From contig JANPEF010000091.1 in assembly GCA_031431875.1 (NCBI GenBank), positions 1 through 64,000 on the forward strand: 64,000 bases of DNA. Reading direction: 5' to 3'. Shown piece by piece: positions 24,233-29,559 of this stretch. Position numbers and translations under genes: made by a program. How positions within the stretch are numbered: position 1 is the stretch's first letter; the number at the start of each line of letters is the position of its first letter. The notes beneath the pieces were generated by a model. That model saw only the letters and a list, made by a program, of their open reading frames with translations, did no database searches and was not told the origin of the DNA. This DNA is from Candidatus Eiseniibacteriota bacterium. Its GTDB lineage: Bacteria; Eisenbacteria; RBG-16-71-46; DASYSL01.

Positions 24233-24400
24233 CTAGACGCTCGAGATCGCCGTGTTGATCTGCGTCCACACGTCGGCGATGACCGGTCCGAGCAGCGTCA
24301 GCGCCGCGATCGAGACGATCGACAGCAGAGCCGCGAGCAGCGCGTACTCGACGAGATCCTGGCCTTCTTCGCAGACGATGAAATTCTTGAGAGCCTTCAT
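24233..24400 (-). CDS. flp: Flp type IVc pilin
   Basis: MKALKNFIVCEEGQDLVEYALLAAL (G|xxxxEY Flp motif); RBS AAAGGAG. Confidence 0.95.
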   Translation of the reverse strand: MKALKNFIVCEEGQDLVEYALLAALLSIVSIAALTLLGPVIADVWTQINTAISSV

Positions 24401-24576
24401 GTTCGAACTCCTTTGGTCGGCCCCCGACTGGCACCGATGAGATCGGCAGCCGCCGGGGTGCCCTTGAGGCGAGAGCAACGGACACGGGGCCTCGCTGACA
24501 CTGGTTGGGTCGCAGCCCCTCGCGACCCGGCGCATCCTCCCAGCGGGGAAGCGTGCGTCAGGCAGCGTGTAGCATT

Positions 24577-24592
24577 TGCAAGGGCCGTGCCC
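24577..24592 (-). promoter_or_regulatory. Sigma54 promoter of the flp/tad operon
   Basis: Minus strand GGGCACGGCCCTTGCA, near-perfect match to TGGCACG-N4-TTGCW, ~180 bp upstream of the flp ATG. Confidence 0.8.
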
Positions 24593-25130
24593 GCCAGTCC
24601 GGCGAAGGGCCATTCCGATTCAAACCGTCCGAACTATATGGACAGGAACCGGTTGGCCGGAATCACACCCGCGTCGTGCAGACTGCCCACAGCGGGCAGG
24701 ATGCATCAATTTCGGGGGAGATTCCCCACCCAAGGGGCGAAAAAGCGCAAATCTTTTGCTGGGAGAGGTGTGAGACAAGAGGGTGCGTCGATGGTGAACA
24801 CGCAAGGTGTCGCGACCCGGACCCCGTCTCTCCGCAGGGACTTCAGTCCAGATTTGACGCTGATTCCGCGCCTTCCCTTCATGTCTTGCATGAAGGTGTG
24901 GGCAAGCTAGCAGGCTCTGCTTCGACTTGCAAGGGTCGCGATGGGCGGGAGGAGGGCCTCGACCTGGATCCGGATCGTCCGATTCATCGCCCACGAGCAT
25001 CGTGGGAATATTTTCCCGCCCAGACTGGAGTGGGGCGGAGGCGCCGGAGCGGCCCCGCAGCTCGTGGGGTTCGCGAGCACACCGCTTCCAGCGCCTGGGC
25101 AGGCACCGCATTCGTGCGGTTTGAGCGGAC

Positions 25131-26996
25131 CTAAGTTGCGCTTTGCCCGCGAGATGCCGCCCGAGGCGACTTTGCGGCTGGCTTCCGGGAGGGGGTCCGC
25201 GTCCCGGGTTTGGTCGCCTTCGGGGTCTCAGAGCGGCGGAATGCGTGGCTGATCGGCAGGCGGCGATCCCGGCCAAAGGCGCGCGGGGTCACCTTGATCC
25301 CGGGTGGCGACTGCCGGCGCTTGTACTCGTTCCCGTCGACCATGCGCACCACCCGGTCGACCAGGTCCGGCAGGATCCCCTCGGCCGCCAGGTCCTCGGG
25401 CGAGAGGTCCTGCTCGACGTAGGCCTCGAGGATCGGGTCGAGGACCGCGTACGGCGGCAGAGAATCCTCGTCGCGCTGATTCGGCCGCAACTCGGCCGTG
25501 GGCGGCCGGGTCAGCGTCGACTCGGGGATCGGCGCGGTCTCCCCCGCGCGCAGCGCCCGCTCGTTGCGCGTGCGGGCCAGCGCGTAGACCGCGGTCTTGG
25601 GCACGTCCTTGAGCACCGCAAAGCCGCCCGCCGTATCGCCGTACAGCGTGTTGTAGCCGACCGAGACCTCGCTCTTGTTCCCCGTGGTCAGCACCAGCCA
25701 GCCGAACTTGTTCGACAGCGCCATCAGCGTATTGCCGCGGATGCGGGCTTGCAGGTTCTCTTCCGTCACGTCGGCACGCCGGCCCTTGAACACGCCGGCG
25801 AGCGCCTTGTCGTAGGCCTCGGCCACGTCGGCGATCGGCACGGTCAGGCAACGGATCCCGAGGCGCTGCGCCAGGTCGGCGGCGTCCTCCTCGCTGCGCC
25901 GCGAGGTGAACTTCGACGGCATCGACACGCCGATCACGCGATCAGGGCCCAGCGCATCGACCGCCAGCGTGGCCGTCAGCGCCGAATCGATCCCGCCCGA
26001 GAGGCCCAGGACGACCGACTCGAAGCGATTCTTCACCACGTAGTCGCCGAGCCCGAGGACGAGAGCCTCGTGGAGTTCGTGCGGGCCGTCGAGCTGGGGC
26101 GCAATGCCCGGCGTGATGCGCGGCCGACGGCGGGTCGCACCCGCCCGCCGCGGCGGCAACTCGATGCGCCGCACCGGCAGCAGGCCGTGATCCTCGCCGC
26201 GCCAGGCGATGCCGTCGCGCCGCCGCGGATCGCGCAGCCGCGCCCGGAACACGGACTCGAGGTCGAGATCGGCGACGATCAGGTCCTCCTCGAACGCCCG
26301 CGCGCGAGCCAGGACGTCGCCGTGCTCGTCGAGGATGACCGAGCTGCCGTCGAACACCAGTTCGTCCTGGCCGCCCACCTGGTTGACGAAGGCGACGCAC
26401 GCCACGTTGTCCGCCGCCCGCGTGGCGAGCATGCGCTCGCGATCGCGCGTCTTGCCGCGGAAGTAGGGCGACGAGGAGAGCACCAGCAGCAGCTCCGCCC
26501 CGCCCTCGCCGGCCTGCGCCACCGCGGGCCCGTCGGGGTACCACACGTCCTCGCACACGTTGACGCCGAAGGTGACGTCGCCATAGCCGAACACCAGCGG
26601 CTCGCGCCCCGCCTGGAAGTAGCGCTTCTCGTCGAATACGGAATAGTTGGGCAGGTGGTGCTTCCGGTAGATGCCGCGCACCTCGCCGCCGGCGATGACG
26701 GCCGCGGCGTTGTAGACGTCATCGTCACGGTGGGCCACCCCGACGACCACGACCGAGCGGGTGACGTCCCCGGCCAGCGCGGCCAGCGCGCGACGGTTGG
26801 CGTCGATGAACTCGGAGCGCAGGAGCAGGTCCTCGGCCGGGTAGCCGGGGATGGTCTGCTCGGGGAAAGCGATGAGCTCGGCGCCGAGAGCCTCGGCACG
26901 GGTGATGGCGTCGCGGATCCGACGGAGATTGCCGTCGAAGTCACCGACCGTCGTGTTCACCTGCGCCAGGGCGATACGAAGCGTCCGCATGGTCAT
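25131..26996 (-). CDS. nadE: Glutamine-dependent NAD+ synthetase
   Basis: Nitrilase-like domain (FPE, LPNYSVFDEKRYF, VCEDVW) plus GLSGGIDS, ENLQARIRG, TGNKSE, EYKRRQSPPG; start 26996 or 26990. Confidence 0.95.
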   Translation of the reverse strand: MTMRTLRIALAQVNTTVGDFDGNLRRIRDAITRAEALGAELIAFPEQTIPGYPAEDLLLRSEFIDANRRALAALAGDVTRSVVVVGVAHRDDDVYNAAAVIAGGEVRGIYRKHHLPNYSVFDEKRYFQAGREPLVFGYGDVTFGVNVCEDVWYPDGPAVAQAGEGGAELLLVLSSSPYFRGKTRDRERMLATRAADNVACVAFVNQVGGQDELVFDGSSVILDEHGDVLARARAFEEDLIVADLDLESVFRARLRDPRRRDGIAWRGEDHGLLPVRRIELPPRRAGATRRRPRITPGIAPQLDGPHELHEALVLGLGDYVVKNRFESVVLGLSGGIDSALTATLAVDALGPDRVIGVSMPSKFTSRRSEEDAADLAQRLGIRCLTVPIADVAEAYDKALAGVFKGRRADVTEENLQARIRGNTLMALSNKFGWLVLTTGNKSEVSVGYNTLYGDTAGGFAVLKDVPKTAVYALARTRNERALRAGETAPIPESTLTRPPTAELRPNQRDEDSLPPYAVLDPILEAYVEQDLSPEDLAAEGILPDLVDRVVRMVDGNEYKRRQSPPGIKVTPRAFGRDRRLPISHAFRRSETPKATKPGTRTPSRKPAAKSPRAASRGQSAT

Positions 26997-27105
26997 GCTC
27001 CGCAGATTGCATCCGCCGCGCGGGGCCCCGATCTCGTTGCAGGACTTCCCGTTACCTACGGGAGAGCCCGGGCCCGCCCCCACTGTACCACGACGTCCCC
27101 CGGAC

Positions 27106-27140
27106 AATGAAAACGGGCCCGGAATTGCTTCCGGGCCCGT
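27106..27140 (-). terminator. Intrinsic terminator of the candidate sRNA
   Basis: ACGGGCCCGGAA-GCAA-TTCCGGGCCCGT (12-bp stem, GNRA loop) followed by TTTCATT. Confidence 0.8.
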
Positions 27141-27291
27141 GCGAGGACCGTGGGTGTGCCCTTCCGTCCTCCCTGACGAACCGCCTTCCGTGGCCCCGGC
27201 CTTCCCTGGTCGGGCGTGCTTGCGGGCTGGCAATCCCTGCCGTGTGACCCCTCGGTAGCTGCCTGTCCCCCCCTCAGGAGACGCTGGCAGA
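27106..27291 (-). ncRNA. Candidate CsrB/RsmZ-like small RNA (multiple GGA-loop hairpins)
   Basis: Lies between a sigma54 promoter (27302-27317) and a terminator (27106-27140); hairpins ggcaGGGATtgcc, ccAGGGAAgg, gccACGGAAggc, gtcAGGGAGgac, cctg-AGGGGGGGA-cagg, plus ACGGAAG; 5' end inferred. Confidence 0.65.
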
Positions 27292-27301
27292 GCATTGCAA
27301 T

Positions 27302-27317
27302 CGCAGGGTCCGTGCCA
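27302..27317 (-). promoter_or_regulatory. Sigma54 -24/-12 promoter driving the candidate sRNA
   Basis: Minus strand TGGCACGGACCCTGCG (TGGCACG, GG-N10-GC); IHF-like CAACGAGTTA at 27368-27377. Confidence 0.75.
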
Positions 27318-27535
27318 GTCGGGCGGGGCGCGAGCGGCGCGACGAAGCGCGGTCCCCAGGCTGCTCATAACTCGTTGCCACGAATGATGTTCGGATGTCG
27401 GCGGGGGTCGATTCGGGGGGCCGCGTCCGCAACGAAATCGGCGCCCGGGAAGTCCCGGACGCCGCGTCGTGCACGATGCGCGATCAATCGCCGCGCAAGA
27501 TGCAATCTTCGGAGGATGAACCGGAGGCTGACGAT

Positions 27536-28132
27536 CTACTCGAAGACGGCTTCCTTCGCGGTGACCACCGCGCGCAAGGTTGTCAGCTGGATATCGCCCT
27601 CCATCGGCGCGAGACCCACCCCCGAGTCCAGCACCAGCCGGATCCCGATCTGCGCTTCCTTCCCCGTGAACAGCTCGGCGAGTTCGGCGTCCCCGACGAC
27701 GATCGTCTCGATCGTGTCGGCCATCGCGCCATTGACCGTGAACGTGCCGACGACCGGCGTGCTGTCGGTGACGAAGGGGTCGGTGTCCGCCGGCGACAGG
27801 TACACGGCGATCCGCCCGGTGCCGGAGCCCGTCAGGTTGGTGATGATGGCGCCCACCTCGACCTGGACGTCGGTCACGGTGGAGACGTCATCGAGCCCGG
27901 GCAGCAGGTTGAGCCGTCGCGACTGGACAACGTCCACCGAGTCGGAGATCCCGGGCGGCACGGGGCCGTAGTGAGCGTTCTGCTCGTCGGCGGTGAGGAA
28001 GGTGAGCAGGTCGACGCGGACGATCAGGCTCTTGTCGCCGCAGCCGACGGCCACCATGGCGGTGAGAGCGCACGCGAGCAGGACGAAGCGCGCGGCCTTG
28101 TTCGGGCGCCGCGAACGGATGGTCGGGTTCAT
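27536..28132 (-). CDS. Hypothetical lipoprotein
   Basis: MNPTIRSRRPNKAARFVLLACALTAMVAVGC lipobox; ATG overlaps the upstream stop. Confidence 0.75.
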   Translation of the reverse strand: MNPTIRSRRPNKAARFVLLACALTAMVAVGCGDKSLIVRVDLLTFLTADEQNAHYGPVPPGISDSVDVVQSRRLNLLPGLDDVSTVTDVQVEVGAIITNLTGSGTGRIAVYLSPADTDPFVTDSTPVVGTFTVNGAMADTIETIVVGDAELAELFTGKEAQIGIRLVLDSGVGLAPMEGDIQLTTLRAVVTAKEAVFE

Positions 28133-29508
28133 TCGCTGCCTCCCGGGCCGTACAGCGCGAGCGATGCGGCCAGCTCGAGACCACGGTCGGTCGTGATGCC
28201 GCGGCTGTTGGTGGCCAGCGCGATGTCGAGCCCGATCGAGCCGAGCTTGATGCCGCTGCCGGCAGTGAACTGGAGCTGCTTGTACGTGTCGAGATAGACG
28301 CCGCCCCGCAGCGGCACCGCGAGGGCCCACGTCTCGAAGCCGGCGCGCGGGATCCAGCGCTCGTTCGAGGTGCGGTCGAGCGTGCCGCCGAACATCATCG
28401 GCCCCGTGCGGTAGGCCACGTTGAGGCTGCCGGTGACCGGGAACTTGCTCTTGTACTCGACGCCGCGCTCGAGCTCCTCGGTCGTCGTGTTGCCCGAGAC
28501 CGAGTCGTAGGCGATGCGCTTGAGGTCGGTGTTCTTCCACGTCATCGTGCTGCCCAGGTCGGTGACGCCGACACCGATCTCGATCTTGTCGACGAACACA
28601 GCCACGCCGAAGTCGCCGCCGACGCCGGTGCCGGCGCCGAACTTCGGGTCCGAGGCGTCGCGGATGTCCGCCTGGTAGGCGGCGTCGATCGGCGTGGTCG
28701 TGCCGAAGATGGTGTCCCCGGTGGCGAAGTTGCCGGCCGCGTCGGCGCGCCAGAAGGCGATCCCGCTCAGGTACTTGAGGCGCGCTCCGGCGTAGACGGC
28801 GAAGCCGCCGCGGCGCGGATCGCCCTCGGGCGCGTCGGGGGCGGTGACCAGCGGCAGCGCGGCGCCGGCGGTGAAGGCGATCGCGGTCTGGGCCTGCACT
28901 TCGTCGGTCGCGCCATAGACCGAGTTCGGTTGCACGGGCGCGGCCTCGCCCAGCACCTGCTGTAGCGCAGGATCGAGGTCGAGCGACATGCGGCCGTCGG
29001 TCTGCGGGCGCACACCGGCGAACACGTTGGGCGTGCCGAACTCGAGGTTCGGCGACTGCCACGAGACGCCGTAGCGGATCGATTCGTCGGGGAACAGGCG
29101 CTGCAGCTCGCCCAGGTCGACGGCGAGGCTGTTCTTCGAGATGTCGATGATGATGTCGCTCGACAGCTCCTCGGGCTCGATGAGCTGCAGCGTCCACGGC
29201 GATTGACCGAGCAGGTTCGCGATCTGGAACACGTTGAAGTTCGGGTTGTCGGGATCGAACTCGGGCGGATCGGCGAAGTACTGGATGATCCCGAGCGGCA
29301 GCGGAATCGCGTTGTAGCCGGCGAACGACTTGCCCGGCTTCGGCACCGCCCGGTACGCCACGTTCTGCGTGTTCGAGCCCGAGACCTCGGAGACGATGAT
29401 CCCGCCCATGCCGAGGCGGCGCGCGTCGAACGACTGCGCGCCGGCGGGGCCGGCGATCGCGGCGAGCGCGCCGAGTGCGATCCCGGCCGTCACGATGCGT
29501 TTGAGCAC
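28129..29508 (-). CDS. Putative outer-membrane beta-barrel protein (TraF/DUF5723-like)
   Basis: Signal peptide AGA|QSFDARRLGMGG, amphipathic beta-strands; GTG after GGAGG. Confidence 0.6.
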   Translation of the reverse strand: MLKRIVTAGIALGALAAIAGPAGAQSFDARRLGMGGIIVSEVSGSNTQNVAYRAVPKPGKSFAGYNAIPLPLGIIQYFADPPEFDPDNPNFNVFQIANLLGQSPWTLQLIEPEELSSDIIIDISKNSLAVDLGELQRLFPDESIRYGVSWQSPNLEFGTPNVFAGVRPQTDGRMSLDLDPALQQVLGEAAPVQPNSVYGATDEVQAQTAIAFTAGAALPLVTAPDAPEGDPRRGGFAVYAGARLKYLSGIAFWRADAAGNFATGDTIFGTTTPIDAAYQADIRDASDPKFGAGTGVGGDFGVAVFVDKIEIGVGVTDLGSTMTWKNTDLKRIAYDSVSGNTTTEELERGVEYKSKFPVTGSLNVAYRTGPMMFGGTLDRTSNERWIPRAGFETWALAVPLRGGVYLDTYKQLQFTAGSGIKLGSIGLDIALATNSRGITTDRGLELAASLALYGPGGSE

Positions 29509-29559
29509 GGCGATTCCTCCCTGGACCATTCCCCCGCGCTCCCTGCGCGGGGCGGCACT

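Follow-up and report, generated by a model that had tools for sequence, protein, structure and literature searches.

Which product, if any, does the intergenic region upstream of nadE encode in a Candidatus Eiseniibacteriota bacterium? We addressed this question in a 64,000-nucleotide (nt) stretch of its genome (GCA_031431875.1, contig JANPEF010000091.1, positions 1 to 64,000), here called the window. Coordinates refer to the window unless another locus is named, the unit under study lies on its minus strand, and the genome containing it is G000. An earlier note, made from the letters alone, had read the region as a sigma-54-driven small RNA (sRNA) that sequesters CsrA in the manner of CsrB or RsmZ. 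This sponge reading is supported, and every prediction of it that could be computed held. We consider it likely that the region encodes a stand-alone, sigma-54-transcribed CsrA sponge RNA acting alongside the protein FliW.

A predicted transcription unit upstream of nadE

As our analysis confirmed, there is a real unit upstream of nadE, made up of a sigma-54 site, a non-coding stretch of about 187 nt and a terminator with a 12-base-pair (bp) stem. The -24/-12 promoter lies at 27302..27317 (-), where the note had placed it, with GG at 27316-27315 and GC at 27304-27303; this is the spacing typical of a sigma-54 promoter, and rpoN and activators, the prerequisites of the proposed wiring, are present in the genome. 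TGGCAY-N7-GC recurs in all 12 homologues, 121-123 nt (nine copies) or 94-98 nt (three copies) above the same hairpin. The predicted RNA spans 27104..27292 (-), its 5' end being placed by promoter spacing, and closes with an intrinsic terminator (27104..27140, -; stem 27140-27113, -25.9 kcal/mol), whose GCAA loop agrees with the GNRA loop described beforehand. Three terminator pairs are altered on both sides in the alignment, and the short U-tract is poor, short or broken in several homologues. At the sequence level the RNA thus has its own promoter and its own intrinsic terminator. In agreement with the expectation that it is non-coding, no sense open reading frame (ORF) is common to the 12 copies: G001 has none of at least 15 amino acids, and a 79-amino-acid ORF at 27295 loses its ATG there. 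A hidden peptide encoded in the RNA was therefore rejected.

The unit is followed by nadE (25131..26990, -), a glutamine-dependent NAD synthetase recognized by the Pfam domains NAD_synthase and CN_hydrolase and by synteny. In 12/12 copies the RNA immediately precedes nadE in the same orientation, and in several the U-tract is imperfect. Both observations would suit a 5' leader or attenuator through which nadE responds to CsrA, with CsrA binding altering terminator read-through. We regard this as improbable. Between the last GGA loop and the start of nadE there may be as few as 85 or as many as 200 nt; the stem of the terminator shows covariation, and no conserved antiterminator was seen in a search that was not exhaustive. 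Separate -10-like boxes precede nadE as well: the candidate extended -10 box TGGTACAGT (27082..27090, -), correctly located by the note, is retained in G000, G001 and G002, and in most of the other homologues a TAGGAT-like box stands a short way ahead of the start of nadE. Furthermore, a different RNA found at this site in another family (f3, see below) stands up to about 4.9 kb from nadE. Hence nadE probably is a syntenic neighbour outside the transcript. A check for nadE riboswitches or attenuators gave no Rfam cis-element match at the unit.

Four conserved ANGGA hairpins

The RNA was found upstream of nadE in nine of ten genomes of one Candidatus Eisenbacteria family (f1), by DNA search in all five same-genus genomes and G007 and by reading upstream of nadE in G006 and G009. 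It also occurs on at least three metagenome contigs among the 119 stretches listed. G008 (92% complete) gave neither an RNA nor a nadE match. The unpublished genome G007 is counted among the homologues, in alignments A4 and A7, and in the numbers given for fliW below; it contributes a compensatory pair to hairpin 4 and another to the terminator. Three copies of the genus g2 type have a different 5' hairpin, three loops and weaker stems.

Eight GGA motifs are present in the RNA, five of them as ANGGA. The note had claimed at least six GGA motifs, mostly in hairpins, and all five stem-loops that it quoted were located; four of the loops are conserved, whereas its first hairpin and its sixth motif are not. 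The former (27278-27262, -2.2 kcal/mol) is outcompeted by a GUCUCCU/GGGGGAC stem of -9.1 kcal/mol, and its GGA is lost in 4/9 homologues. The latter, ACGGAAG, shares nucleotides with the 3' stem of the final hairpin, and only 3/9 homologues have it. The competing stem belongs to P1, a 5' stem-loop with a non-GGA loop (27260..27289, -), in which GUCUCCU pairs with a G-run and a 4-bp outer stem is added; it is replaced in the g2-type copies.

All four remaining hairpins carry A-x-GGA in 9/9 alignable copies, i.e., in all 36 loops, with x being G, C or A. Hairpin 1 (27229..27241, -) has a 7-nt loop and an outer pair that is C-G in five copies and G-C in three. The other three have hexaloops. In hairpin 2 (27196..27212, -; x is G in four copies, C in four and A in one) 100% of cells are paired and one pair is altered on both sides, and in hairpin 4 (27163..27180, -) two pairs are. 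Hairpin 3 (27183..27194, -), found also in the three g2-type copies, gives no covariation evidence because its stem is invariant. Long-range helices appear to enclose the GGA domain (27148..27255, -; 27255-27247 with 27157-27148, and 27227-27224 with 27161-27158); they come from a by-eye reading of each sequence and a constrained fold, are out of register in the alignments and thus carry no covariation score.

The conserved loops with covarying stems that the note had expected in relatives are found. The nine alignable copies share a mean identity of 77%, at which promoter, loops and terminator are strictly conserved. Within them the A-x-GGA columns are invariant (16/16, x being free), versus 16/93 of the other unpaired columns. 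Eight of 37 pairs changed on both sides and 97.9% of cells are paired, a level reached by 0/500 shuffles, with slid controls at 38-57%; the shuffle result is not a p-value, because the sequences are related, which inflates it, and because the structure was drawn from the same sequences. Four ANGGA hairpins arose in 1/20,000 dinucleotide shuffles of the RNA. Nowhere else in the 3.75-Mb genome do four such hairpins fall within 90 nt, and this cluster has a sigma-54 site immediately above it. When the genome was shuffled three times, the numbers of such clusters were 0, 0 and 1; the cluster alone is therefore not decisive.

Model R1, which scores 143-183 bits on the nine copies (seven of them used to build it), gave 14 weak extra matches outside the family copies among 151 genomes of the phylum. 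We dropped a wider spread of the RNA on this basis: nine matches that were read have no GGA arrays and the other five cover the terminator only. A three-loop pattern occurs in 19 genomes outside the family; of the loci read, one in each, most were tandem repeats and none had a sigma-54 site less than 200 nt away. On three unrelated metagenome contigs (L237:~700-800, L228:~655-740 and L284), arrays of GGA hairpins were also seen between genes, with terminator-like stems after them; these are possible Csr sponges of other lineages.

CsrA, FliW and candidate targets

The genome encodes two csrA genes, as a sponge would require, together with fliW adjoining csrA2, rpoN and 19 strong sigma-54 activators. 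In agreement with the sponge reading for a non-gammaproteobacterial lineage, no UvrY/GacA was found in the genome (best score 47.6 bits, cut-off 280); a search for Hfq was likewise negative. CsrA1 aligns without gaps to E. coli CsrA and likewise to the CsrA chain of 5DMB, which gives the best alignment. It matches E. coli CsrA at L2, L4, R6, V40, V42, R44 and I47, which we take to be the key RNA-binding residues. Both copies have N55 and a C-terminal extension, described as FliW-binding features of CsrA (PMC13407953). The note had not foreseen the co-presence of fliW. FliW is encoded in 8/10 family genomes and occurs together with the RNA in 7/10. The fliW-csrA2 locus (L177, G000:C115:16755-17646) lies apart from flagellar genes and has its own conserved sigma-54 promoter. 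The cluster headed by csrA1 (L176, G000:C153:76650-83470) encodes a PAS kinase, a sigma-54 response regulator, a MinD/FlhG-like ATPase and an alternative sigma factor, and a receiver-AAA+ protein is encoded just downstream of csrA1. The cluster also holds a receiver protein and, judged by eye, a small FlgM-like ORF.

Neither flagellin nor FliF was found in the genome at 98% completeness, so that the bacterium apparently is flagellum-less. A flagellin match in G002 (L153:1-150, G002:C26) was set aside; it is a fragment of low GC content joined to a gene that runs uninterrupted in G000, and probably a contig-end assembly chimera.

Loops of the same type occur in candidate target leaders. In 8/8 family copies the csrA1 leader places an AGGGA pentaloop over the ribosome-binding site, on a stem of 4 bp in six copies and of 3 and 2 bp in two, and a sigma-28-like promoter lies above csrA1 in 8/8. 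The fliW leader has a sigma-54 site in 8/8 and two ANGGA hairpins in 5/8. In family f2, 3/3 flagellin leaders carry two C-G-closed ANGGA hexaloop hairpins, which serves as a control from within the order that its CsrA encounters loops of this kind. The flp pilin leader, by contrast, offers nothing beyond an AAGGAG ribosome-binding site, strong ANGGA hairpins being absent; the note's suggestion that the RNA controls the neighbouring Tad pilus is thus unsupported. A sigma-54 site was seen about 240 nt upstream of flp (24365-24605, -), whose long leader has conserved, apparently paired segments in G000, G002, G004 and G007 without an Rfam match. A sigma-28-like box before flp in G000 and G002 was dropped, being absent in G004, G007 and G009.

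The GUCUCCU of P1 (27276-27282, -) is complementary to AGGAGAC before fliW in four genomes, possibly by chance. The RNA might thus be a dual or mainly base-pairing sRNA that pairs with AGGAGAC ribosome-binding sites, e.g., that of fliW, with CsrA merely stabilizing or chaperoning it. GUCUCCU is invariant in 9/9 copies and keeps two invariant U-G wobbles, the fliW site reads CAGGAGAC in G000, G001, G002 and G005 and CAGGAGAT in G007, and genus g2 is without both seed and site. However, the seed is locked in the -9.1 kcal/mol stem, the 8-mer is shared by 8 of 2894 crude gene calls and AGGAG by 507, Hfq was not found in the genome, and plain relatedness may account for the co-occurrence of seed and site. 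A base-pairing role therefore seems quite unlikely to us, and CsrA titration by the four loops remains our preferred reading.

Distribution across the order

Three families of the order differ in their equipment. Family f1 has no flagellin, and has FliW and the RNA; f2 has flagellin and FliW and is without the RNA (model R1, 0/3); f3 has no FliW and another RNA. This suggests that the RNA replaced the flagellin mRNA as a CsrA sink, although with three families only it is a hypothesis and not a correlation. In f3, 20 of 22 nadE loci read (loci L073-L094) are directly preceded by a site of the sigma-54 type, an undescribed multi-branched RNA some 220 nt long and a terminator (for example, L084:3368-3627, -). 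This RNA has compensatory helices and invariant AAAG and AAG loop words and no ANGGA array; its core model was found in 56/60 f3 genomes and in 0/91 others. We presumed a resemblance to GlmY/GlmZ, which was not confirmed: Rfam gave no match and 31 genomes no RapZ, so that this identity was rejected. The f3 CsrAs (L035-L064) have a proline-rich tail in place of the helix-like C-terminal segment of f1 and f2, f3 csrA leaders mostly show GCGGAGG instead of ANGGA loops, and fliW was found in 0/48 f3 genomes although 16/48 have flagellin matches.

Proposed mechanism

The RNA appears as a family-specific candidate CsrA sponge and a real conserved unit, in which a promoter, four ANGGA loops, a terminator, the lack of a conserved ORF and cognate csrA, fliW and rpoN come together by sequence. 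From this anatomy and its conservation we infer transcription, binding and titration. An enhancer-binding protein would switch on the sigma-54 RNA, whose four loops could bind about two CsrA dimers. CsrA titration would then free mRNAs with the same loop at the ribosome-binding region, the clearest candidates being the csrA1 and fliW-csrA2 leaders. Since fliW-csrA2, too, has a sigma-54 promoter ahead of it, a single sigma factor would increase both a competitive inhibitor, the RNA, and an allosteric one, FliW; the genome may thus use both known modes of CsrA inhibition, decoy RNA and FliW. More speculatively, the RNA might serve as a CsrA sink in place of flagellin mRNA, which fills this role in the flagellated sister family f2. 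For the full scenario the chances seem to us about even: an independently evolved sigma-54 CsrA sponge beside FliW would, after flagellin loss, have taken the role of flagellin mRNA and been wired into the surviving flagellar cascade, while the FliW-less sister family has a different structured RNA at the locus.

Several observations weigh against a sponge. The single-sequence minimum free energy fold (z = -2.0) does not show all four loops, a fold with all of them open lies 4.6 kcal/mol above it, and folding without constraints hides some loops in G000 and G005. Genome-wide enrichment in leaders is modest, with the hairpin in 62/2833 leaders versus 15/2453 coding controls; gene calls were crude, control motifs were enriched 1.1- to 1.7-fold and ribosome-binding sites confound the comparison. 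CsrA2 of G000 has Gly5 where CsrA1 and E. coli CsrA have Thr, and Gly5 is seen in genera g1/g3. Family f3 keeps csrA (46/48) with neither FliW (0/48) nor a GGA RNA, which indicates that CsrA in this order can do without both. Finally, a machine-learning model predicts that few Eisenbacteria CsrAs repress B. subtilis hag; E. coli CsrA falls into the same low-hag class, and the authors caution against reading the class as inactivity (PMC13443453). This low predicted activity, and the f3 case of a locus that can host non-GGA RNAs, could also mean that the loops bind a different GGA-loop-reading protein or that the RNA is a silent relic. We consider this very improbable, given the strict conservation described above and the recurrence of these loops in the leaders of csrA, fliW and flagellin. 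Hence a CsrA sponge is retained as the most plausible function.

Neighbouring features

A terminator-like hairpin (27439..27464, -; inspected in G001 and G002) lies 3' of the upstream gene, which ends at 27536, and may insulate the unit from read-through. A possible IHF site (27368..27377, -) is located 60 nt above the promoter; the IHF consensus used is CAA-N4-TTA, and the site is weak because only 3/9 homologues have the pattern. A check for activator sites found TTGCA-type words 100-190 nt upstream in most copies, without a fixed palindrome. The upstream genes on the minus strand encode an unannotated lipoprotein-like product (27536-28129) and an outer-membrane-like protein (28132-29529), which matches DUF5723 weakly and whose leader contains an ANGGA hairpin; the latter gene was not found in five other-genus genomes.

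Comparison with known systems

A dedicated sponge candidate and fliW, both behind sigma-54 sites, co-occur in 7/10 genomes of one family. If true, this would show that CsrA sponges arise outside Gammaproteobacteria without BarA/UvrY. Our literature search, mostly without subscription papers and supplements, returned neither an account of this RNA nor a validated dedicated sponge from a species that has FliW. Joint action of FliW and sRNA on CsrA in any species was still to be determined in a 2020 review by Pourciau (PMC7652899), and a paper from 2026 continues to present them as alternative mechanisms (PMC13407953). The components are small enough for work in E. coli or B. subtilis.

The novelty is tempered by C. 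jejuni, where the flaA mRNA bears ANGGA loops and titrates CsrA in cells that also have FliW (PMC4894983). The C. jejuni flaA and B. subtilis hag circuits resemble the present case by an ANGGA-loop RNA beside FliW and a CsrA with N55 and C-terminal extension. However, flaA is a sigma-28 mRNA, whereas here a dedicated non-coding sigma-54 transcript is predicted in a genome where flagellin and FliF were not found. It is tempered also by the TwoAYGGAY and Bacillaceae-1 motifs, predicted CsrA binders outside Gammaproteobacteria that are unvalidated there (PMC4333381). Those have two loops and come from Firmicutes, here there are four, and neither was among the 12 Rfam matches at E <= 10.

CrcZ is a sigma-54-dependent protein-sequestering sRNA that titrates Hfq. 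It shares with the present RNA a sigma-54 promoter for a protein sponge and differs in its target, Hfq not being found here. In P. stutzeri, loss of RpoN raises rather than lowers rsmZ (PMC8249394).

The closest functional likeness is to RsmY/RsmZ/RsmX and CsrB/CsrC of Gammaproteobacteria, which are activated by BarA/UvrY (GacS/GacA) in hosts without FliW (PMC4682653). The differences lie in the sigma-54 site, the UvrY/GacA search that was negative, FliW in the same genome, the phylum, and four loops here versus 22 GGA in CsrB (PMC7652899). The Rfam search that the note had proposed found no CsrB, CsrC, RsmX, RsmY or RsmZ match at threshold (PrrB_RsmZ 12.1 bits versus 44). By Rfam score, activator and FliW exclusion the RNA thus stands outside the family. 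By what defines the functional Csr/Rsm class, namely repeated and conserved ANGGA loops in a non-coding RNA with its own promoter and intrinsic terminator and a cognate CsrA with an intact RNA-binding surface, it would nevertheless work like RsmY and RsmZ.
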